A stretch of DNA of 64,000 bases from Escherichia coli. GTDB taxonomy: Bacteria; Pseudomonadota; Gammaproteobacteria; Enterobacterales; Enterobacteriaceae. Positions 3,358-28,073 of the stretch are shown here, piece by piece. A program made the position numbers and the translations under genes. The notes under the pieces were generated by a model that was given only the letters and a program-made list of their open reading frames with translations, made no database searches and had not been told where the DNA came from. Location of the stretch: the NCBI RefSeq assembly GCF_022846255.1, contig NZ_AP025682.1; one strand, written 5' to 3'. Each line of letters opens with the position of its first letter. The stretch's first letter is position 1.

Positions 3358-3458
3358 GTATTCAGGGCCCACCGAAGGACGGCTCATAACCCAATCCTAC
3401 GGGCGTATACGCAGGGCCCGCCTTTCAACAACACCCCGTAATGGCGGAGGTGGGAAGT

Positions 3459-3800
3459 ATGAAAATGCACAATGCTCCTCATTCCTGGCCTGACTTACTG
3501 GAACTCTTACAAAGTTGGTGGCGTGGAGATACGCCGTTGGGCGCAGTGGTTATGTCAATTGTTATGGCTGGTTTGCGCATTGCCTATTTTGGCGGTGGCG
3601 GCGGCTGGAAACGAAAAACGCTTGAGATTTTGCTCTGTGGTGCTCTGACGCTGACCTTTGCATCCGCTCTTGAGTATGTTGGATGGCCTAAATCGCTTTC
3701 TGTTGCCATTGGTGGCGGCGTTGGGCTGATCGGTGTCGATGCTATTCGTGGGGCTGCAATGCGAGTAATCGGTAACAAATTTGGTAGCTCGAAGGAGTAA
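3459..3800 (+). CDS. Holin (lambda S-like) with M-K-M dual-start motif
   Basis: Hydrophobic segments and charged C-terminus; start MKMHN at 3459/3465 preceded by GGAGGTGG; the ORF track's start at 3441 is also possible. Directly upstream of endolysin. Confidence 0.7.
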   Translation: MKMHNAPHSWPDLLELLQSWWRGDTPLGAVVMSIVMAGLRIAYFGGGGGWKRKTLEILLCGALTLTFASALEYVGWPKSLSVAIGGGVGLIGVDAIRGAAMRVIGNKFGSSKE

Positions 3801-3803
3801 TTT

Positions 3804-4280
3804 ATGCAGGAACTAAATCCCCAGCGTAAAGCTTTCCTGGATATGTTGGCCTGGTCAGAAGGAACGGATAACGGGCGACAACCGACACGTAATCACGGTT
3901 ATGACGTTATCGTCGGAGGTGAGTTGTTCACTGATTACTCCGATCACCCTCGCAAACTTGTCACGCTAAACCCGAAGCTTAAATCAACAGCTGCAGGCCG
4001 GTATCAACTTCTTTCACGCTGGTGGGATGCCTACCGCAAGCAGCTTGGCCTGAAAGATTTTTCGCCAGAAAGTCAGGACGCTGTGGCGCTGCAGCAGATT
4101 AAAGAGCGTGGCGCTTTACCGATGATTGACCGTGGCGATATTCGTCAGGCAATCGACCGTTGCAGCAATATCTGGGCGTCGTTACCTGGTGCAGGTTACG
4201 GTCAGTATGAACATAAAATCGGTGACCTGATTTCCAGGTTTAAAGATGCTGGTGGGGTGGTAAATGAAGCTGACTTATAA
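3804..4280 (+). CDS. Endolysin, lambda R-like lytic transglycosylase
   Basis: 158 aa; near-identical over most of its length to lambda R as I recall it (NPQRKAFLDMLAWSEGTDNGRQPTRNHGYDVIVGGELFTDYSDHPRKLVTLNPKLKST). Confidence 0.9.
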   Translation: MQELNPQRKAFLDMLAWSEGTDNGRQPTRNHGYDVIVGGELFTDYSDHPRKLVTLNPKLKSTAAGRYQLLSRWWDAYRKQLGLKDFSPESQDAVALQQIKERGALPMIDRGDIRQAIDRCSNIWASLPGAGYGQYEHKIGDLISRFKDAGGVVNEADL

Positions 4281-4788
4281 GATTGTCATCGCGGCATTTT
4301 TCTTCTCTGTCTTTGGGGCGCTCGTCTGGTCTGCAAACCATTACCACAGCAAGTATCAGGCAGAAAAGTTGCGGGCTGATAAAGCGGAAGGTGAAGCTGA
4401 ATATCAAGGGAAAGTGATAGCTAATCAGGCATTAAACTTCAATCGTTTTAACCAGATAGCAGAAAACGCAAGCCGATTAAATTCTCTGGTCGACATCGGT
4501 CACGAGAAGACAGTCATCAAATACCGTGAGGTTCTGCTCCGTGAAAAGAACTGTGATTTCCCTGTTCCTGTTGATATTGCTGTCGGGTTGCTCAACTACG
4601 CGAACCGTTTACGTGCCAGCGCATTGCACGCCGATTCCGGGGACATTGACTCAGCCGGTGATCGTGCCACTACCACCAGAACGTTGACATATTGCCAGGC
4701 TGTTCTGTGGATTAACCCACTGTTGGCAGCCATCGAGAAGGCGAATAACCAGTTGGCTGGTGTCCGACAAATAGAACAGTCCCGGTAA
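4264..4788 (+). CDS. i-spanin (Rz-like)
   Basis: N-terminal signal-anchor helix then a long charged helical region; overlaps endolysin stop; contains an embedded +1-frame lipoprotein ORF. Confidence 0.65.
   Translation: MKLTYKIVIAAFFFSVFGALVWSANHYHSKYQAEKLRADKAEGEAEYQGKVIANQALNFNRFNQIAENASRLNSLVDIGHEKTVIKYREVLLREKNCDFPVPVDIAVGLLNYANRLRASALHADSGDIDSAGDRATTTRTLTYCQAVLWINPLLAAIEKANNQLAGVRQIEQSR
4541..4687 (+). CDS. o-spanin (Rz1-like outer-membrane lipoprotein) embedded in the Rz frame
   Basis: Translation from GTG at 4541: VKRTVISLFLLILLSGCSTTRTVYVPAHCTPIPGTLTQPVIVPLPPER; lipobox LLSGC, Pro-rich C-terminus; not in the supplied ORF track (under 60 aa). An in-frame GTG at 4526 is an alternative start. 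Confidence 0.6.
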   Translation: MKRTVISLFLLILLSGCSTTRTVYVPAHCTPIPGTLTQPVIVPLPPER

Positions 4789-15540: not shown

Positions 15541-15993
15541 ATGGAATTCGAAATCAAAGGCGTGAAATATCGCGTGGTAAAACTCAGCGTTTTTGACCAA
15601 CTGAAAGTGACCCGCAAACTTCTGCCGGTGCTGGCAGGAATGATGTCAGATTTCGGGAGCATTCGCTCCCGTTTGCCTGCTGATGGCAAAATCGACACCG
15701 TGAAATTCGAGCAGTTAAAACCGGTGTTTGAAACCATGCTCCCGCGTATCGCTGAGGAACTGTCTTCCCTGACCGAAGATGACACCAGTGCGATTATTCA
15801 TCCCTGTCTTGCGGTGGTATCGCGGCGTCATATGGACGGATGGGTTCCGGTATTTACCCAGGGCGAACTGATGTTTGATGATATTGACTTGCTGGTCATG
15901 CTGCAGCTGGTGGCGCGGGTGGTCGCCGATTCGCTGGGAAATTTTTTGCCTACACCCCTTACCAGCACGACGCAGAGCCTGCAACAGGGCTGA
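15541..15993 (+). CDS. Tail assembly chaperone (G-like); a -1 frameshift extension (GT-like) is predicted to 16181
   Basis: 150 aa immediately upstream of tape-measure gene; slippery run A_AAT_TTT_TTG at 15939-15948; the -1 frame is open from there to TGA at 16179-16181. Confidence 0.55.
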   Translation: MEFEIKGVKYRVVKLSVFDQLKVTRKLLPVLAGMMSDFGSIRSRLPADGKIDTVKFEQLKPVFETMLPRIAEELSSLTEDDTSAIIHPCLAVVSRRHMDGWVPVFTQGELMFDDIDLLVMLQLVARVVADSLGNFLPTPLTSTTQSLQQG

Positions 15994-16149
15994 CGTTTAA
16001 CAGCCTGCCGGACGGGCTGTCCTACCTTCTCAATCCGGTTGACGCCGGGTTAATTCCTTATACAGCACTTAAAGATGGCTCTGTCGATTTGTACGATATT
16101 GCTCTTTTGAATGACCATCTGGCGGTAAAAGCGGATAACCAGCGGCGCA

Positions 16150-18159
16150 TTGAGAAATGGAGAGAGGATAATGAACGCTGAAACTATTAAAGATTTCCTC
16201 GTCTCGCTTGGCTTCAGTGTGGATGATGCAGGAGCGAAAAAGTTCGGTTCTGTCCTCGCCGGTACAACTGCAAATGTCATCAAAATGGGGCTGGCCGTTG
16301 AAGGAGCCGCGCTGTCCGTGGTGGCCTTCACGGCTAAGATCGCCTCCGGTCTGGATAATCTTTACTGGGCGTCACAGCGCACTGGAGCGACAGTCCAGGG
16401 AATTCAGTCTATTGGCTATGCGGTTTCGCAGGTTGGCGGCAGCGTGGACGCTGCGCGATCTTCTCTGGAAAGCCTCTCCCGGTTTATTCGTAATAATCCC
16501 GGTGCAGAGGGATTTCTGAATCGCCTGGGGGTACAGACACGGGATGCCAGCGGTAACATGCGTGACATGGCCGCTATTTTTACAGGTGTAGGCCAGAAGC
16601 TCAGCGGCATGCCGTATTACCGGGCTAACCAGTATGCGCAGATGCTGGGCATTGACGAAAATACCCTTATGGCGATGCGTCGGGGTGTGGGTGGTTTCTC
16701 CGGGCAGTACAGCGCAATGGCGAAAGCTATCGGCTTCAATGCTGACGAGGCGGCCAGAAGCTCCAACAAATTTATGACCTCCCTGCGTGAGTTTAGCGCG
16801 ATGGCAGGCATGGCCCGTGACAAAATCGGCTCTAATCTTGCGGGTGGACTTGCGGGGTCGCTGGACACCCTGCGCCGCCATATCCTGGACAACTTCCCGC
16901 GCATCGAGCAGACTCTGACGAAAGCCATAAAAGGCATTCTGGCGCTCGGGGATATTATCGGGCGGCTGTTCTTCAGACTGATTGAGGGGACATCAGGCCT
17001 TATCACCTGGTGGCAATCGCTGGATAAGCAAACGCGGGAGTTGATCTCGCTGTTTGGCGCACTGACGATTGCGCTGCGCATTCTGAACAGTACGTTCTGG
17101 ATGTCGCCGATTGGCCTCATTACCGCGCTGGCGGCGGGGATTGCCCTCCTGTGGGAGGACTATCAGACCTGGAAGGAAGGCGGCGACAGCCTGATTGACT
17201 GGGGCAAGTGGAAACCGGAGGTCGATGCCGCGCTGAAGATGGTTCGTGACCTTAAAACGACCGTTAACGACCTGGCGAAAGCGCTGGCGAAACTACTCAA
17301 TATTGACCCCAAATCATGGTCCCTGAAGTGGGATTTCAGCAACTTCATCGACCAGATGGGCGAATTCAGCAAAATGCTGAACATGATCGCCGACCTGCTC
17401 AACGCTATCAAAGATGGCCGCTGGGCTGATGCCGTCAGCATCGGCAAACAGATACTTAATCAGGGCAGCGAAAATCCGTCAGCGATGCCGATGGTTACAG
17501 ACAGCGCTAACAGTACTGCCGACTGGATTAAAGAGCACTGGGGATTCGATCCCCGCAGTGTGGGCCGAACGGTACGCGGCTGGTTTGGTGATGATGAGCC
17601 GGAACAACATGCACAGGCTACGAAACGAGGAGAACGGAATAACAATCCGGGAAACCTTAATTTTGCTGGTCAGGCGGGGGCTTCTCTTGAACGCCCGGGC
17701 GGGCGATTTGCCAGATTCGAAACTGCCTTTGATGGATTACGGGCTCTTGCTCGTCAGTTAATGTTGTACGCCGGACGTGGAATAAACAGCGTGGAGAAAA
17801 TTATCTCTACCTGGGCGCCTGCGTCTGATAATAACAACACAACTGCGTATATCAGGGCTGTATCGCAACGACTGGGAGTGGATCCCCGGGCTGCCCTGAA
17901 TATGAGCGATCCGCAAACCATGTCAGCATTGATGAGCAGCATTATCCAGCATGAAAATGGAAGAAATATCTATTCTCAAGAGCTGATTAATAAGGCTGCC
18001 GTGGCGGGAATTAGTGGCAAAGTGACAGAGGTTAACCAGCAAAATACCTACCACATTTACGGTGGCGGAGATCCGCACGTTGTCGGTAATGAGGTTGCAC
18101 GTCGGCAACAGTCTGCAAATGCTCAGGTCATGCGAAGTAATCAGGTGAGGGTGAGTTAG
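16150..18159 (+). CDS. Tail tape-measure protein
   Basis: 669 aa, helical/Gly-Ala-rich N-terminal half; likely true start is ATG 16171 (GAGAGAGGA SD); the ORF track starts at TTG 16150. Confidence 0.7.
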   Translation: MRNGERIMNAETIKDFLVSLGFSVDDAGAKKFGSVLAGTTANVIKMGLAVEGAALSVVAFTAKIASGLDNLYWASQRTGATVQGIQSIGYAVSQVGGSVDAARSSLESLSRFIRNNPGAEGFLNRLGVQTRDASGNMRDMAAIFTGVGQKLSGMPYYRANQYAQMLGIDENTLMAMRRGVGGFSGQYSAMAKAIGFNADEAARSSNKFMTSLREFSAMAGMARDKIGSNLAGGLAGSLDTLRRHILDNFPRIEQTLTKAIKGILALGDIIGRLFFRLIEGTSGLITWWQSLDKQTRELISLFGALTIALRILNSTFWMSPIGLITALAAGIALLWEDYQTWKEGGDSLIDWGKWKPEVDAALKMVRDLKTTVNDLAKALAKLLNIDPKSWSLKWDFSNFIDQMGEFSKMLNMIADLLNAIKDGRWADAVSIGKQILNQGSENPSAMPMVTDSANSTADWIKEHWGFDPRSVGRTVRGWFGDDEPEQHAQATKRGERNNNPGNLNFAGQAGASLERPGGRFARFETAFDGLRALARQLMLYAGRGINSVEKIISTWAPASDNNNTTAYIRAVSQRLGVDPRAALNMSDPQTMSALMSSIIQHENGRNIYSQELINKAAVAGISGKVTEVNQQNTYHIYGGGDPHVVGNEVARRQQSANAQVMRSNQVRVS

Positions 18160-19050: not shown

Positions 19051-20112
19051 ATGTCACAGAACTGGATGAGACATTTCGAGCTGCAGCTTGTGGACGGGAA
19101 CGGTCAGGGAATTGAGCTAAGTGATTTCAAAGTCACCTTTACGATCGACTGGTTCAACATCAGCAGCGCGTCCCGGGTAGGGACTATCAAAATTTATAAC
19201 CTTTCGGCAGATACTGTGAACCGAATTACCGGGCAGGAGTTTTCGAAAGTGCGTCTGATTGCGGGTTACGACGGTATCGCGCCGGAGGTGTCGGCAAGCG
19301 ACGTCGGGACAGTGCGGGAAGTTGACGCGGCGGACGTGGGCCAGAGTGATGGTCGCAACTACGGACTGATTTTCAGCGGTGAAATTCGCTACTCGGTCAC
19401 AGGAAAAGACAGTCCGGTTGATTCCTACGTCCTGATTCAGGCAGCAGATACTGATCTGGCTTTTGCCACCAGTATAACCTCACAGACGCTGGCTGCCGGT
19501 TACACGGTCGCTGATGTGAACCGTGCGCTGATGAAAGACTTCGAAGCCAAAGGTGTGACCGAAGGCCTGACGCCTGAAATGCCTGCTACTGTATTCCCCC
19601 GGGGGCGGGTGCTCTTTGGCATGACGCGGCATCTAATGGATAACGTAGCCGGGCAATGTGGCGCAACATGGCAATTCGTGGACGGTCAGCGCCAGATGGT
19701 GGCGACTAATGAATATGTTCACGAAGCGATTGTGCTCAACAGTGCTACCGGGCTTATTGGCATGCCGCAGCAGACCATCGGCAACGGCGTAAACGTCCGC
19801 GCTCTTATTAATCCGAACATCCGGGTTAACGGGCTCATTCAGCTGGATCAGGCTTCCGTCTATCGTACCGCGTTGTCGAACAACGATATTGCGATGGCTG
19901 GTGGTCAGATCACCGACCAGAACACGGACGGAAATATCACGCTCAGCGGCACCACATCGCAGCCTGCCAGCATCGCAACGGATGGAGTTTATATTGTGCG
20001 CGGGATTATGTACAGTGGCGATACAAGGGGCCAGGCGTGGTACATGGATATGATGTGCGAAGCGCGTGGCGCGGCGGATCTGTATACGCAATCGGCTTTG
20101 CAAAGGGGATGA
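19051..20112 (+). CDS. Putative baseplate hub protein (Mu gp44 / P2 gpD-like by position)
   Basis: 353 aa; directly upstream of baseplate spike, gp46-, J- and gp48-like genes. Confidence 0.4.
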   Translation: MSQNWMRHFELQLVDGNGQGIELSDFKVTFTIDWFNISSASRVGTIKIYNLSADTVNRITGQEFSKVRLIAGYDGIAPEVSASDVGTVREVDAADVGQSDGRNYGLIFSGEIRYSVTGKDSPVDSYVLIQAADTDLAFATSITSQTLAAGYTVADVNRALMKDFEAKGVTEGLTPEMPATVFPRGRVLFGMTRHLMDNVAGQCGATWQFVDGQRQMVATNEYVHEAIVLNSATGLIGMPQQTIGNGVNVRALINPNIRVNGLIQLDQASVYRTALSNNDIAMAGGQITDQNTDGNITLSGTTSQPASIATDGVYIVRGIMYSGDTRGQAWYMDMMCEARGAADLYTQSALQRG

Positions 20113-20115
20113 GCA

Positions 20116-20457
20116 ATGAGGGGTATTATTTTTCTGTTAGCTGTCTTTTCTGCGTGCAGCGCGTGGGCGGATGGCTTCACGGTTAAATGCGGTGGCTACA
20201 CTATGGTTGCAAACCAGGGCGAGTTATCGACAATCAACGGTGAAAGAGTTACCTCTCAAAAAATCACCGAACTGGGTACCAATGGTTTGAAAGTAGACAT
20301 GGGGCTTATGCCTGCCAAAGACGGTAACAACTACGGCTTTGAATACATTCGTCGCCCTGGTACCGAAACGCGATTCCTGAATGTCCAACTGCTGCAGAAC
20401 AGCATGGATGCGCCGAAAATCATCGGTTCCTTTCCATGCAAAAAGATTGTTGATTAA
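20116..20457 (+). CDS. Small exported protein (signal peptide; possible lipoprotein); moron inserted in the baseplate operon
   Basis: 113 aa; N-terminus MRGIIFLLAVFSACSAWADG (signal peptide; AWA-DG SPI site or FSAC lipobox-like); two later Cys; AGGGGA SD. Confidence 0.55.
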   Translation: MRGIIFLLAVFSACSAWADGFTVKCGGYTMVANQGELSTINGERVTSQKITELGTNGLKVDMGLMPAKDGNNYGFEYIRRPGTETRFLNVQLLQNSMDAPKIIGSFPCKKIVD

Positions 20458-20474
20458 TCACTCGTAATTATAAT
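20447..20474 (+). promoter_or_regulatory. Putative sigma70 promoter for the small membrane-protein gene
   Basis: -35 TTGTTG (20447-20452), 16-nt spacer, -10 TATAAT (20469-20474), about 36 nt upstream of the ATG at 20511. Confidence 0.4.
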
Positions 20475-20510
20475 GTGGTACTTCTACTTTCACGATAAGG
20501 AATTTGTCGC

Positions 20511-20750
20511 ATGTTCGGATTTGATAAATTAATAACTCCAAAAATCATCAACGTTCTGTATGGCATCACAATGTTACTTCTGGTTGTTGCCGCCATTATA
20601 ACGTTTGTTAATGGGAAGGCTGCTGGCGCTTTAGTGCTTTTGTTATGTGCTGTATTTTGCCGAATATTCTTTGAGTGCATCATGGTTTCATTTAAAAACA
20701 ATGAGTATCTTCGCCGAATAGCTGAAGCGTTAGAAGCAAACAAGCAGTAA
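20511..20750 (+). CDS. Small membrane protein (two predicted TM helices); moron
   Basis: 79 aa; two hydrophobic helices (ITMLLLVVAAIITFV, ALVLLLCAVFCRIFFECIMV); AAGGA SD; followed by a strong terminator. Confidence 0.55.
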   Translation: MFGFDKLITPKIINVLYGITMLLLVVAAIITFVNGKAAGALVLLLCAVFCRIFFECIMVSFKNNEYLRRIAEALEANKQ

Positions 20751-20768
20751 TGAAACTTCAATAATGAA

Positions 20769-23791: not shown

Positions 23792-24609
23792 TGGCGAAAA
23801 ATGACTTTAAAGCGTTTGCAACGGATCGAAATGCCAATGTTATATCGCAGGAGGAATGGGAAGCGTTGCCCGCGCTTGTATCCGGATTTACAGCAGGGAA
23901 AGCCTCCAGTGCGCAAGTCAATAAGGTTATTCGGCAGGCCAGCTTTATTGCTGCAGCTCTGGCCCAGTTTGTAAGTGATAAAACGCAACGGGATGTGCTT
24001 GATAATGGTGATCTGCCCGGTTTTGTTGAATTGCTGGGATCGGGGTTTGCTGTTGAATACCTGAGCCGCAAGAATCCGTTTGGTGATATCAAATCGGATG
24101 GCACGGTGAAAACGGCTCTCGAAAACCTTGGTTTGGGAGAAGGCTCTGCATTACCTGTTGGTGTGCCTGTTCCGTGGCCCTCCGCAACCCCGCCAACGGG
24201 CTGGCTGAAATGCAACGGCGCTGCCTTTGATAAGGTGAAATATTCCCATCTTGCTACAGCATATCCATCAGGGAAACTACCTGATCTCCGTGGTGAGTTT
24301 ATTCGTGGATGGGATGACGGGCGTGGTATTGATGCAGGACGTGCTTTATTGAGCATTCAGACTGGGATGCTGGAAAAACACCGCCATATTGTTGTTGCCA
24401 ACGATGGGTATGATTCAAAAGAGGAATGGGAACTGGCGACAATCTTCAGAAGAGCATATACGCAAGGCCGGGGGCTTGATGCTGCCGATGCCGGAGGAAC
24501 TCTGATTCCATCACCAACGCTACATACACGAGGGAGTATTGGTAACACAGGTGGGAGCGAAACCCGTCCACGAAATATTGCATTTAACTATATCGTGAGA
24601 GCTGCATAA
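23791..24609 (+). CDS. Tail fibre protein: constant N-terminal part fused to variable C-terminus in the current orientation of the invertible segment
   Basis: C-terminal collar-like motif [16 protein letters not shown]; gene spans the left crossover site at 24116-24141; likely start ATG 23791 (the ORF track's ATG 23773 is in frame). Confidence 0.7.
24116..24141. repeat. Left crossover site of the invertible segment (hix/gix-like 26-bp site)
   Basis: CTCTCGAAAACC-TT-GGTTTGGGAGAA; its inner half-site is a perfect inverted repeat of 26069-26080. Confidence 0.65.
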
Positions 24610-25211
24610 TGGATAAAGCCGTATTAAATAGCGAACTTATTGCCACGAAGGCGGGGAATATTACCGTCTATAACTATGATGGTGAAACACGGGAATATAT
24701 TTCCACTTCAAATGAATATCTTGCCGTTGGTGTCGGTATCCCGGCATATTCCTGTTTAGATGCTCCTGGCACATATAAGGCTGGTTATGCAATCTGCCGT
24801 TCAGTAGATTTAAACTCATGGGAATATATGCCAGACCATCGCGGTGAAATTATCTATAGCACCGAAACAGGAGAAGCAAAAGAAATCACAGCTCCGGGTG
24901 ATTACCCTGAAAATACAACCACTATCGTCCCGTTAACGCCATATGATAAATGGGATGGTGAGAAATGGGTGACAGATTCTGAGGCACAACACGGTGCCGC
25001 AGTAGAAGCGGCAGAAGCACAGCGCCAGTCACTGATTGATGCAGCAATGGCTTCCATCGGTCTGATTCAGCTGAAATTACAGGCCGGACGGAAGCTGATG
25101 CAGGCAGAAACAACCCGGCTTAACGCTGTGCTGGATTACATTGACGCGGTGACGGCAACAAATACCAGCACAGCGCCGGATGTCATCTGGCCTGAACTGC
25201 CGGAGGCGTAG
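24609..25211 (+). CDS. Tail fibre assembly protein (U-like)
   Basis: 200 aa; ATGA-coupled to tail-fibre stop. Confidence 0.7.
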   Translation: MDKAVLNSELIATKAGNITVYNYDGETREYISTSNEYLAVGVGIPAYSCLDAPGTYKAGYAICRSVDLNSWEYMPDHRGEIIYSTETGEAKEITAPGDYPENTTTIVPLTPYDKWDGEKWVTDSEAQHGAAVEAAEAQRQSLIDAAMASIGLIQLKLQAGRKLMQAETTRLNAVLDYIDAVTATNTSTAPDVIWPELPEA

Positions 25212-25628: not shown

Positions 25629-26080
25629 TTACCGTCCAATGATTAACGCTGAGACGCTGGTATCTGAAGGAAAGGCTGCATTCAGTGGTTTGTCGACTTT
25701 GAACACAATCGTATTATTCCCCCTGACAGCGGCAAAAGAACAAACCGCAGTCGCGTATGAACCTGTAATATTACTGGATACACCACCATAAGCTGTTGTT
25801 GATACCAGAGGGATAACGCCCAGCACCTTATTAGGAAATACAAAGGGCAATGTGGCTGTGGCAATATAAGACTTATTAGAGCCTGTGATGGCATAAGCAT
25901 TATCAGTCATTCCATTCATCGCCACCGGGCCGCTTATACTTACAGTAACCATCTGAATGATTAGCCCGTCAGGTTGACGAATCACAAAATTTCCATTGCC
26001 ACCAGTAACCGTCCAGAAAGACATATCAGGGATTTGGTTTTCCCCGTTGCCCACATTCCGTTTTGCCGCTTCTCCCAAAC
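25629..26080 (-). CDS. Alternative tail-fibre variable C-terminal segment (Sv'-like); no own start, expressed only after inversion
   Basis: Open frame runs from the right crossover site; encodes GLGE at the site, matching LGLGE at the left site in the expressed fibre. The ORF-track start at 26123 lies outside the segment. Confidence 0.6.
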
Positions 26081-26094
26081 CAACGTTTATGAAA
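26069..26094. repeat. Right crossover site of the invertible segment
   Basis: TTCTCCCAAACC-AA-CGTTTATGAAAA. Confidence 0.65.
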
Positions 26095-26149
26095 ATGCAG
26101 AAATAACGAGCAAATGGCATCATTCCTGCTTTTGTCAGGGAGATCTACC

Positions 26150-26704
26150 ATGCTTATTGGCTATGTACGCGTATCAACAAATGACCAGAATACCGATCTA
26201 CAACGTAATGCGTTGAACTGTGCAGGATGCGAGCTGATTTTTGAAGACAAGATAAGCGGTACAAAGTCCGAAAGGCCGGGACTGAAAAAACTGCTCAGGA
26301 CATTATCGGCAGGTGACACTCTGGTTGTCTGGAAGCTGGATCGGCTGGGGCGTAGTATGCGGCATCTGGTCATTCTGGTTGAGGAGTTGCGCGAACGTGG
26401 CGTTAATTTTCGCAGCCTGACGGATGCTATTGATACCAGCACACCGATGGGGCGTTTTTTCTTTCATGTGATGGGGGCCCTGGCTGAAATGGAACGAGAA
26501 CTGATTGTTGAACGAACAAAAGCTGGACTGGAAGCTGCTCGCGCACAGGGACGAATTGGTGGACGTCGTCCCAAACTTACACCAGAACAATGGGCGCAGG
26601 CCGGGCGACTAATTGCATCAGGAGTTCCTCGCCAGAAGGTGGCGATCATTTATGATGTTGGCGTATCGACTTTGTATAAGAAGTTTCCGGTCGGAGATAA
26701 ATGA
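26150..26704 (+). CDS. pin: Serine-recombinase DNA invertase (Pin/Gin/Hin family)
   Basis: 184 aa from MLIGYVRVSTNDQNTDLQRNAL; catalytic Ser in VRVSTNDQ; C-terminal HTH; AGGGAG SD; adjacent to the invertible segment. Confidence 0.85.
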   Translation: MLIGYVRVSTNDQNTDLQRNALNCAGCELIFEDKISGTKSERPGLKKLLRTLSAGDTLVVWKLDRLGRSMRHLVILVEELRERGVNFRSLTDAIDTSTPMGRFFFHVMGALAEMERELIVERTKAGLEAARAQGRIGGRRPKLTPEQWAQAGRLIASGVPRQKVAIIYDVGVSTLYKKFPVGDK

Positions 26705-26784
26705 AACCGTAGCACGTCGTATGCAAGAACGTGCCACGGCTGGCTGATAAGCTTGTAAAAATATTGAACAGGGAGTGGAGCATT

Positions 26785-27432
26785 CTATGAAGCTAATTTG
26801 TTTAATTTCATTTGTAGTGACTTTACTTCTTGGTCGATAATGTCGAATCCCTTATTGACAGCATCTCTTAGCTCTGCATCAATATTTTTTATCCCTTGAG
26901 CATAATCTACCATTACATTTATTTTTGCATCATGTAATCTCTTATACATGGTTTTATCTTTGTTATTGTCTGCCATGCCAATAAGGATTTTTTCATAATC
27001 CTCAATGAGTTTGTTGTTTCCTTTAAATGATTGTATTAATGAGCGTGAATATGTGTATATGTTAATTATTGAGTCTCTAGCAGAATCATTTAGTTTTGCA
27101 ATGACATTCGCATTTTGCTCATAGAATGTGAAATTATCATCCCCTACAGGGAATGTGAGAATCAACATTTGTCCCGGTTTTATATTATCAATGTGTGTTT
27201 TCATCCTTTTATTATATAAATTGATTAGGGTGAAAACTTCTCCCTTAACTCCTTTTAATACTGAAAGTTGTAATTCAAGGGATTCTCTTTCTGTCTCTAC
27301 TTTAGACAGCTTAGCTTGTTGGGTAACTCCTTTTAGGGTAAACCATCCGCCAATAAGAGTACCAACTAGAGCTGTGAGGGAGGAGGATAACCATCCAGGT
27401 ATGCTATTTAAAAGATTACTAAATTCACTCAT
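26785..27432 (-). CDS. Hypothetical membrane-anchored protein (N-terminal TM helix plus charged helical region); cargo gene
   Basis: 215 aa; hydrophobic segment WLSSSLTALVGTLIGGWFTL then K/E-rich region; AT-rich composition unlike flanking DNA. Confidence 0.5.
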   Translation of the reverse strand: MSEFSNLLNSIPGWLSSSLTALVGTLIGGWFTLKGVTQQAKLSKVETERESLELQLSVLKGVKGEVFTLINLYNKRMKTHIDNIKPGQMLILTFPVGDDNFTFYEQNANVIAKLNDSARDSIINIYTYSRSLIQSFKGNNKLIEDYEKILIGMADNNKDKTMYKRLHDAKINVMVDYAQGIKNIDAELRDAVNKGFDIIDQEVKSLQMKLNKLAS

Positions 27433-27490
27433 TATAAGTACTCGCTAATATTGAACGATATATATATCAAATTATTATAAAACTCGTCAG

Positions 27491-27769
27491 CTACTGGAGC
27501 AGGCTACCTGAACTTCGATCTATTCCTGCATCCATATAGTTGATGGTCTTCTGGAGCTCTTCGATTAGGGCAACAGCTTTTGCTCGAGAAATGCATATTA
27601 GTTGATCCGGAAATTCTTGTAAGGGCCAGTTTGGTATACAGGCCATGTTATCAGTGAAGGATGCAGACAAGTAAACTTCATTGGTAACCAGAGAATAGCT
27701 TACCTCAAAATTGGTGAGTTCCGGCAAACTGCTAACGTTTGACTCTTTTCTGCGCATAATATTATCCAT
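27491..27769 (-). CDS. Hypothetical small protein (cargo gene; start uncertain, ORF could extend to 27919)
   Basis: 92 aa from MDNIMRRKE; the longer 142-aa frame includes a PPP stretch encoded by a C10/G10 tract; no strong SD at either start. Confidence 0.35.
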   Translation of the reverse strand: MDNIMRRKESNVSSLPELTNFEVSYSLVTNEVYLSASFTDNMACIPNWPLQEFPDQLICISRAKAVALIEELQKTINYMDAGIDRSSGSLLQ

Positions 27770-27851
27770 GACTGTAATTATGTACAGGTGATGGTCTTCA
27801 ATTTCGAAGAGGGAGTCAAGGGGGAGTCTCAAATGAACCGTTATAGAAAAA

Positions 27852-27861
27852 GGGGGGGGGG
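27852..27861. repeat. Homopolymeric tract G10 (C10 on the coding strand of the cargo gene)
   Basis: Ten consecutive G at 27852-27861. Confidence 0.9.
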
Positions 27862-28073
27862 ATCTTTGTGTTGCTGAACTTATGCAAAATTTTTTTGCAC
27901 CATAAATCCAACAACACATTCAATAACACATTGCTGTATCACTATGAAAATAAATGTGTTTTTATTTGATTTCACACATATCACAATTGATGCATTTTTT
28001 AGTGATTAACAGCGCCATAAGGAAACTCTCAAAACAACACAAACCGGGCGGGCATTATACGCGCATTCTTTAC

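Follow-up and report, generated by a model that had tools for sequence, protein, structure and literature searches.

Tape-measure proteins (TMPs) with lytic domains, such as T5 Pb2, mycobacteriophage TM4 Tmp and the TMP lysins of enterococcal and staphylococcal phages, deliver a muralytic module at the tail tip during infection. The modules in these examples are peptidases (M23-like), Rpf-like or SLT. Among the gp16-type proteins of Autographiviridae, which are ejected virion proteins with a small peptidoglycan-cleaving domain, T7 gp16 carries an SLT domain at the N-terminal position where Kayfunavirus Gp29 has an Enc34-type domain.

The characterised members of the Enc34-type family, Hafnia phage Enc34 ORF39 (7Q47) and Salmonella phage BSPM4 M4Lys, are endolysins: lysis-cassette proteins of ~26 kDa with a C-terminal transmembrane domain and demonstrated muralytic activity. 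The catalytic domain of Enc34 ORF39 lyses outer membrane-permeabilised E. coli, P. aeruginosa and H. alvei, and the authors noted its distant kinship with both GH23 and GH73 and proposed a GH73-like glucosaminidase, with the catalytic role of its Trp, Tyr and Glu residues derived from superposition rather than from mutants (PMC8943055). M4Lys degrades purified peptidoglycan (PMC7143992), and its data were interpreted as combined glucosaminidase and endopeptidase activity, with muramidase given in one figure legend (PMC8943055, PMC7143992). The structural protein P5 of Corticovirus PM2, likened here by its description (bioRxiv 10.1101/2022.07.18.500477), is a virion-associated member of this fold family and has an equivalent W/Y/E triad. 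The literature searched yielded no description of an Enc34-type domain in a TMP, and the combination of "Enc34" with tape measure returned only genome comparisons.

The window analysed here, a 64,000-nucleotide stretch of an Escherichia coli genome, contains a contractile-tailed, SEN34-like prophage whose TMP, with a probability of roughly 0.8, carries a virion-associated peptidoglycan hydrolase of the Enc34 type used at entry. All peptides quoted in an earlier sequence-only reading of this DNA lie within a single ORF, 16150..18159 counted from a TTG; translation most likely begins at the ATG at 16171, for a product of 662 aa, and PGAP calls this start in an E. coli prophage of 99.2% identity. 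The gene and two of its conserved parts are:

16171..18159, + strand, tape-measure protein gene of a Brunovirus (SEN34)-like myovirus prophage, 662 aa plus stop
16330..16638, + strand, conserved N-terminal TMP region, aa 54-156 (PF10145, E 1.4e-4, 22.3 bits, cut-off 33.2)
17041..17154, + strand, hydrophobic, highly conserved segment, aa 291-328 (...STFWMSPIGLITALAAGIALLW...), from Kyte-Doolittle analysis

The product matches phrog_2276, "tail length tape measure protein," over its full length (E 1.7e-282), which places it in the TMP family. The gene is located downstream of the tail tube and frameshifting assembly chaperone genes and upstream of the baseplate hub genes, in the order sheath-like DUF3383, tube-like DUF3277, tail assembly chaperone TAC (PF21822), -1 frame extension, TMP, Dit-like (PF21821), Pam3_gp18 plug, hub and spike. 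In the Pfam and NCBIfam scans the matches to PF10145 (PhageMin_Tail) and TIGR01760 both remained under the curated cut-offs, so the TMP call is based on PHROGs and synteny. An extended helical body was also found, in the form of long helices with low pLDDT at aa ~190-470 of the full-length model, and the only confident fold of this model besides aa ~490-615 is at aa ~60-170 (pLDDT 71-87). The protein probably sits in the lumen of the tail tube. Its hydrophobic segment, where hydropathy in a 19-aa window peaks at 1.88 (aa 309), is identical in three TMP variants and is a candidate membrane-inserting part.

The sequence-only reading had proposed a discrete C-terminal domain at 17560-18010 (aa 464-613), less helical than the rest of the protein and possibly a cell-wall hydrolase. 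The region is now delimited as follows:

17581..17619, + strand, linker without helix, aa 471-483 (DSSP coil, pLDDT <50), containing a recurrent recombination junction
17620..18015, + strand, Enc34-type (PHA02564 / PM2 P5-like) peptidoglycan hydrolase domain, aa 484-615, assigned from sequence and predicted fold
18031..18156, + strand, conserved C-terminal tail, aa 621-662 (QQNTYHIYGGGDPH...RRQQSANAQ), present downstream of either type of lytic cassette

AlphaFold2 modelling of aa 464-662 from 71 aligned sequences gave pLDDT >90 over aa 484-613 and predicts a compact bundle of short helices with a small hairpin. In the full-length model aa 207-484 form long helices with pLDDT <50, and linkers without helix flank the domain at aa 471-485 and 615-634. 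Such a combination of a confident compact fold and non-helical linkers indicates that aa 484-615 form a discrete domain, as had been proposed, which is set apart from the helical body and not continuous with it. The expected lower helicity was not seen: the domain is almost all-alpha, and it differs from the body in being globular instead of extended. Its placement near the C-terminus holds, but not at the very end, since the conserved 42-aa tail lies beyond it. The full-length model served solely for secondary structure and domain limits, being of low confidence (mean pLDDT 57.7) and derived from a shallow 20-sequence alignment. This alignment was taken from a search of cluster representatives, because the homologues listed for the full-length protein were all ≥92% identical, too uniform for alignment depth or cassette diversity; TMP homologues number at least 6,077. 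A helix is predicted at aa 635-660 of the tail, which is nearly identical between this TMP, the SLT variant of SEN34 and phage 606R2. Related tails are present in distant TMP homologues, and the tail probably anchors the TMP to the baseplate hub or spike.

Within the last 209 aa (aa 454-662) Pfam and NCBIfam gave no match, even at E≤1, and the domain was identified by PHROGs and PDB sequence searches only. The Enc34/PHA02564 family has no Pfam or NCBIfam model, which explains why the sequence-only reading could not name a family; a domain search did find matches, in PDB and PHROGs. A phmmer search against PDB aligned aa 31-145 of the C-terminal fragment with residues 6-135 of 7q47_A, the Enc34 endolysin catalytic domain (E 1.5e-13); chain L of 9VVP, where the match is to the N-terminal domain of a gp16-type ejection protein from a Kayfunavirus, scored E 1.7e-20. 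This protein was identified, by comparing its aligned N-terminal part with phage genomes in tblastn, as Gp29 of a K1F-like Kayfunavirus, a 1295-aa gp16-type "DNA ejectosome component" with the Enc34-type domain at its N-terminus. With the domain model as query, 7q47 was the sole Foldseek match at E≤0.001 (E 2e-8), and the domain region also matched phrog_873, 7182, 992 and 7694. The predicted fold comprises six helices, resembling the alpha-lobe of lysozyme, and has no beta-lobe. The sequence match to the family is far above chance, and aa 484-615, as judged by sequence and predicted fold, are homologous to Enc34 and constitute an Enc34-type (PHA02564 / PM2 P5-like) domain, which bears out the suspected cell-wall hydrolase. 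The family is large: in a library of 1.84 billion proteins, 19,781 cluster representatives match at E≤1e-3, or about 20,000 clusters defined at 50% identity. It comprises stand-alone proteins of ~140-230 aa and domains embedded in proteins of 500-1700 aa; in ten long proteins with the domain, a scan against PHROGs identified little else.

The peptides quoted in the sequence-only reading contain the most conserved motifs of the family: RGxRNNNPGN, the aromatic residue of TWAP and the putative catalytic Glu of HENG. The corresponding positions in the window are:

17638..17655, + strand, NNNPGN motif (aa 490-495), the best conserved motif in the N-terminal part of the family
17812..17814, + strand, codon of W548, aligned to Enc34 Trp79 in 7q47 (substrate positioning, role from PMC8943055)
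17848..17850, + strand, codon of Y560, aligned to Enc34 Tyr95 in 7q47
17953..17955, + strand, codon of E595 in the HENG motif, aligned to Enc34 Glu131 in 7q47 (proposed catalytic, role from PMC8943055)

The full Trp79 / Tyr95 / Glu131 signature of Enc34 is thus retained as W548, Y560 and E595. The W548 column is aromatic in all 71 homologues (W in 53, Y in 15, F in 3), Tyr occupies position 560 in 71 of 71, and Glu position 595 in 70 of 71 (99%). NNNPGN is at least 90% conserved in the 71 homologues and shows no variation among 20 TMP or domain homologues. The all-helical, alpha-lobe-only lysozyme-like fold, the Trp/Tyr/Glu residues, RNNNPGN and HENG are common to the TMP domain, Enc34 ORF39 and M4Lys, at 30-37% identity. 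The TMP domain differs from the two endolysins in being embedded in a structural protein, in lacking a transmembrane anchor and in being followed by a baseplate-type tail. It likewise differs from Kayfunavirus Gp29, a capsid-internal carrier of a podovirus in which the domain is N-terminal, and from PM2 P5, which is a stand-alone protein and belongs to a phage with a membrane and no tail.

The TMPs of Salmonella phage SEN34 and of SLT-type E. coli prophages are encoded by the same gene in the same synteny and share the N-terminal ~480 aa (88-95% DNA identity); SEN34 also has the same C-terminal tail. Between these parts the slot is filled by a Pfam SLT domain (PF01464, GH23), located at aa 510-604 in SEN34 (E 1.9e-23), without sequence similarity to the Enc34-type domain (BLASTP between the two cassettes, E 14). 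The gene is 88.8% identical to that of SEN34 over nt 1-1467, and E. coli AF20 displays the same cassette swap, with upstream DNA 95% identical. DNA identity to both SEN34 and AF20 collapses at about nt 17604-17616, where identity to phage 606R2 begins; megablast matches stop at query positions 1457-1467, and identity to SEN34 is back from about 18040. Both the swap and the recurrence of the breakpoint at about nt 17604-17616 are evidenced by these comparisons. At megablast sensitivity, the Enc34-type cassette was found in 254 of 5,426 complete E. coli genomes and the SEN34-type SLT cassette in only 6 of the 5,426.

The presence of a true SLT domain in this slot in SEN34 and AF20 raises the question of whether the domain studied here could itself be a GH23/SLT-like lytic transglycosylase, cutting between MurNAc and GlcNAc with formation of 1,6-anhydroMurNAc. 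In hundreds of genomes the RefSeq/PGAP name is "lytic transglycosylase" or "lytic transglycosylase catalytic", Enc34-type enzymes resemble lytic transglycosylases in having a single identified catalytic Glu and no beta-lobe, and a distant relation to GH23 as well as GH73 was seen by the Enc34 authors (PMC8943055). This assignment is nevertheless unlikely. Neither Pfam SLT (PF01464) nor Transglycosylas was found at E≤1 in aa 454-662, the SEN34 SLT cassette is dissimilar in sequence, among enzymes of related structure GH73 glucosaminidases come closest after Enc34, in agreement with PMC8943055, and the products of M4Lys were interpreted as those of a glucosaminidase (PMC7143992). The PGAP label is moreover inconsistent, the identical protein being called "hypothetical protein" in many genomes. 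A cryptic SLT domain as the reason for the label was likewise rejected, on account of the missing Pfam SLT match and the dissimilar cassettes in BLASTP.

It is still less probable that the domain is inert, acting as a plug or adaptor in the baseplate hub cavity or binding peptidoglycan without cutting it. The domain adjoins a conserved tail that probably contacts the hub, and sugar co-crystals of Enc34 were not obtained (PMC8943055), both of which fit such a role; the catalytic signature, NNNPGN and HENG are, however, 90-100% conserved between the active stand-alone endolysin relatives and the TMP-borne copies. In addition, the alternative occupant of the slot is a peptidoglycan-cleaving enzyme with intact motifs (TESGGN...GLFQF...SYNWG), and the alternation of the domain with another intact wall-cleaving enzyme argues for selection on wall cleavage.

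A complete lysis cassette of the lambda type is encoded 12 kb upstream in the window (3441-4788), consisting of S holin (PF05106), R-like lysozyme (1AM7, E 5e-96) and Rz spanin. The prophage thus has its own S/R/Rz cassette, and the TMP domain is best read as a virion-borne peptidoglycan hydrolase for entry. Its use as a second endolysin for host lysis would agree with the function of Enc34 ORF39 and M4Lys, but is extremely improbable: the domain is not the product of a separate late gene beside holin and spanin, being fused within a 662-aa structural protein of the tail-assembly operon, it lacks the transmembrane anchor of those endolysins, and homologous domains occur in virion proteins, both in the ejectosome protein of gp16 type and in PM2 P5, a structural protein. 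A role as the endolysin of this phage was rejected given the separate cassette. Enc34 ORF39 and M4Lys act from inside at lysis, whereas the TMP domain would act from outside at entry.

In such an entry pathway the TMP would lie in the lumen of the tail tube, and its C-terminal tail would be fixed to the hub or spike of the baseplate. Once the sheath has contracted and the spike has been lost, the C-terminal end would leave the tube first and enter the periplasm, where E595 could act as general acid, with W548 and Y560 positioning the glycan, and cleave the glycan strands locally. By analogy with M4Lys, Enc34 and GH73 relatives, the bond cut would most likely be GlcNAc-MurNAc, as by an N-acetylglucosaminidase. 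The passage opened in the wall would allow the tube, TMP and DNA to reach the inner membrane, after which the hydrophobic segment (aa ~291-328) may help to form a membrane conduit. The example of T7 gp16, whose lytic-transglycosylase mutants show a defect at 20 °C and on stationary-phase cells, suggests that domains of this kind may be dispensable in laboratory conditions.

A more speculative proposal, possible but doubtful, is that the linker and the tail delimit an exchange slot through which Brunovirus-like phages swap wall-cutters adaptively, trading a probable glucosaminidase of the Enc34 type against an SLT lytic transglycosylase, or else that the Enc34-type domain is truly bifunctional. 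In the first case the choice would be adaptive if, for example, a glucosaminidase-type cutter were insensitive to MurNAc O-acetylation or to 1,6-anhydro ends that block lytic transglycosylases; in the second, with glycosidase and endopeptidase activities as suggested for M4Lys, the TMP would be a drill with two activities. The SLT/Enc34 exchange offers a natural, near-isogenic gene pair for testing the contribution of the virion lysin and its bond chemistry.

TMP-borne lysins are already well known, so that the domain is an ordinary feature which leaves concepts unchanged. The RefSeq "lytic transglycosylase" label is not supported for this TMP variant, naming the wrong family. The listed clusters of this TMP, with more than 2,000 member sequences from E. 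coli, Salmonella, Enterobacter, Citrobacter and Klebsiella, contain proteins named "lytic transglycosylase" or "hypothetical protein" that have no SLT domain and are members of the Enc34/PHA02564 family, and their annotation could be corrected. The finding extends the Enc34-type domain from endolysins to TMPs. Together with the gp16-type ejectosome copies, the TMP copies suggest that the Enc34-type domain, which forms a very large family, is mainly a virion-borne entry enzyme.

A single long plus-strand open reading frame contains the site at 17560-18010 in its 3' quarter:

16150..18159, plus strand, tape-measure protein (TMP) in the ORF list, read from a TTG

In an E. coli prophage 99.2% identical to this one, PGAP places the gene start at the ATG corresponding to 16171, giving a TMP of 662 aa, and residues are numbered here from that ATG. 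The protein matches phrog_2276, 'tail length tape measure protein', from end to end (E 1.7e-282). Genes for sheath-like DUF3383, tube-like DUF3277 and tail assembly chaperone (PF21822) proteins are located upstream, and those for Dit-like, Pam3_gp18 plug, hub and spike proteins downstream. These data identify the gene as coding for the tape measure of a temperate phage with a contractile tail, a relative of Salmonella phage SEN34 (genus Brunovirus). From about 26 kb onward the window is E. coli chromosome (yfhH, tadA, mltF, purL).

The C-terminal region of the TMP is predicted to contain a discrete domain. For aa 464-662, AlphaFold2 run with 71 homologues predicts short helices packed into a compact bundle, with pLDDT >90 at aa 484-613. 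The full-length model (20 sequences, mean pLDDT 57.7), which served for secondary structure and domain limits only, comprises long helices at aa 207-484 (pLDDT <50), a coil at aa 471-485, a confident domain at about aa 490-615, then coil again at aa 615-634 and a terminal helix at aa 635-660. The sequence-only reading had described this region as C-terminal, less repetitive and helical than the rest, and possibly a discrete globular domain. Structure prediction agrees that it is globular and separate; 'less helical' is inexact because the domain is nearly all-alpha, and although it lies in the C-terminal quarter it is not terminal, being followed by a conserved tail of 42 residues.

The suggestion of a possible cell-wall hydrolase is supported, the domain being of the Enc34 endolysin type. 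Pfam-A and NCBIfam offer no model matching the region, even at E≤1; relatives emerged through a PDB sequence search. Two PDB chains match: 9VVP chain L (E 1.7e-20), over the N-terminal 137 residues of the 1295-aa 'Gp29', and 7Q47 (E 1.5e-13), which is the Enc34 endolysin catalytic domain from a Hafnia phage. Structure prediction bears out the second match, 7q47 being the sole Foldseek hit at E≤0.001 (E 2e-8, TM 0.71). The Enc34 endolysin family corresponds to CDD PHA02564, 'provisional virion protein', and the Enc34 domain is lytic to E. coli, P. aeruginosa and H. alvei whose outer membrane has been permeabilised; its all-helical fold is a remnant of the lysozyme alpha-lobe, with helix order permuted relative to GH73 and GH23, and its likeliest chemistry is that of a GH73-like N-acetylglucosaminidase (PMC8943055). 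A relative, M4Lys, degrades peptidoglycan as purified protein, with products interpreted as those of glucosaminidase and endopeptidase activity (PMC7143992).

The proposed catalytic signature of Enc34, Glu131, Tyr95 and Trp79 (PMC8943055; 7Q47 chain numbering is shifted by one), falls in the HMMER alignment on TMP residues E595 (qHENG), Y560 (nTTAY) and W548 (sTWAP). The three peptides quoted in the sequence-only reading, TWAP and HENG among them, carry signature motifs of the family. Among the 71 homologues, the W548 column is aromatic and the Y560 column Tyr in all, while Glu occupies the E595 column in 70.

When 1.84 billion cluster representatives were searched with a profile, the domain turned up in 19,781 at E≤1e-3, of which 13,946 reach E≤1e-10. 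Many of the best 150 of the 19,781 are stand-alone proteins of 140-230 aa, and about one quarter to one third are proteins of 500-1700 aa in which the domain is N-terminal, internal or close to the C-terminus; this set includes at least seven full-length proteins, and two fragments, that are homologous to the N-terminal part of the window TMP. BFVD matches carry the names 'virion protein' and 'internal virion protein D', and structural protein P5 of corticovirus PM2 has been assigned to the same fold family (bioRxiv 10.1101/2022.07.18.500477). By tblastn, the 9VVP N-terminus belongs to the gp16-type 'DNA ejectosome component' of K1F-like Kayfunavirus phages, encoded by a 3888-nt gene downstream of gp14 and gp15 and ahead of the endosialidase, and a related domain is present in 747 phage records. 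The 762-aa metagenomic protein P0121 has several tandem copies of the domain, with five stretches matched by the profile search and three by phrog_873.

The domain occupies a slot in which cassettes are exchanged. In a megablast search of phage genomes, SEN34 matched only TMP nt 1-1467, because a different domain lies between shared flanks: the two proteins are near-identical over the first ~480 aa and the last ~42 aa (QQNTYHIYGGGDPH...RRQQSANAQ), whereas the SEN34 protein carries an SLT lytic transglycosylase domain between them (aa 510-604, Pfam E 1.9e-23), without detectable similarity to the Enc34-type cassette (BLASTP E 14). In a sliding comparison with SEN34, DNA identity runs at 0.88-0.98 over ~1 kb before the junction (16591-17603), drops to 0.35-0.53 over 17604-18059 and is back at 0.82 from 18060. 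Escherichia phage vB_EcoM-606R2 shows the converse, with a diverged middle (16650-17603, identity 0.27-0.78) and identity of 0.95-1.00 from 17604 onward. In E. coli isolate AF20, 95% identity extends to about 17600, and an SLT cassette and a more diverged tail follow. These three independent sequence comparisons therefore place the junction at about 17604-17616, within the coil preceding the domain.

The TMP middle (16650-17603) is mosaic too: vB_EcoM-606R2 and many E. coli prophages show 92-100% identity in its flanks and 27-78% within, and other E. coli prophages match no further than ~708-726 nt into the query, whose first position is 16150.

Several other features of the prophage were observed. 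The tail assembly chaperone gene (15541-15993) contains a slippery run, GGGAAATTTTTTG, with in-phase heptamers A_AAT_TTT (15939) and T_TTT_TTG (15942), and its -1 frame is open up to a stop at about 16181; a programmed -1 frameshift is probable here (15936-16181). As this frame contains PGAP's separate 'DUF6889 family protein' (16017-16181, phrog_4364), the latter probably forms the C-terminal extension in a gpGT-like fusion that overlaps the TMP start. Collinearity with E. coli strain 48 runs from window position 1 to about 20081 and resumes at 20767. The intervening segment, 20082-20766, between the hub and spike genes, is missing from the strain 48 prophage; SEN34 shares 82% identity with part of this segment, which looks like a moron. 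Its small ORFs, and one at the right end, are:

20116-20457, 113 aa, signal-peptide-like N-terminus
20511-20750, 79 aa, hydrophobic
26785-27432, minus strand, 215 aa, 'hypothetical protein' in strain 48, just before chromosomal yfhH

GC falls to 0.406 at 26000-28000, the right end of the prophage past the invertase, where this minus-strand ORF lies. The tail-fibre and fibre-assembly segments 24123-25132 and 26114-26704 are inverted relative to strain 48 and adjoin a pinE-type invertase gene; on sequence grounds they are identified as an invertible host-range switch in the opposite orientation.

The TMP-borne domain is not the endolysin, since a complete lambda-type lysis cassette is encoded elsewhere in the prophage, at 3441-4788:

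within 3441-4788, S-family holin (PF05106)
3804-4280, endolysin (lysozyme), essentially full-length matches to the lambda lysozyme structures 1AM7 (E 5e-96) and 3D3D (E 1e-94)
within 3441-4788, Rz-like spanin

PGAP calls this endolysin a GH24 protein; it has no Pfam-A match at E≤0.001. The TMP domain is most likely a virion-associated lysin embedded in the TMP, of an already known kind. Its location in a structural tail protein, the alternative occupancy of the slot by another glycan-strand-cleaving enzyme, and the same domain in a podovirus ejection protein argue that selection favours cutting of the wall during entry. By what is generally known of TMPs and contractile tails, the conserved tail at the C-terminus would hold the TMP at the hub or spike, and contraction with spike release would bring its C-terminal end first into the periplasm. 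There the domain would cut glycan strands locally, with E595 as general acid, and a conserved hydrophobic segment (aa ~291-328) may join an inner-membrane conduit. Bond specificity across the family may be that of a glucosaminidase, a lytic transglycosylase or a muramidase.

The window TMP is present in 323 of 5,426 complete E. coli genomes; in the same 5,426, the Enc34-type cassette occurs at ≥95% identity in 254 and the SEN34-type SLT cassette, at megablast sensitivity, in six. RefSeq names SLT-type TMPs 'transglycosylase SLT domain-containing protein', and Enc34-type proteins 'lytic transglycosylase', 'lytic transglycosylase catalytic' or 'hypothetical protein'; on the Enc34-type variant, the name 'lytic transglycosylase' has no domain-model support in Pfam-A or NCBIfam. 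The interest of the finding is modest and lies in a widely propagated mislabel of the family and in a recurrent junction at which non-homologous lytic cassettes are cleanly swapped.
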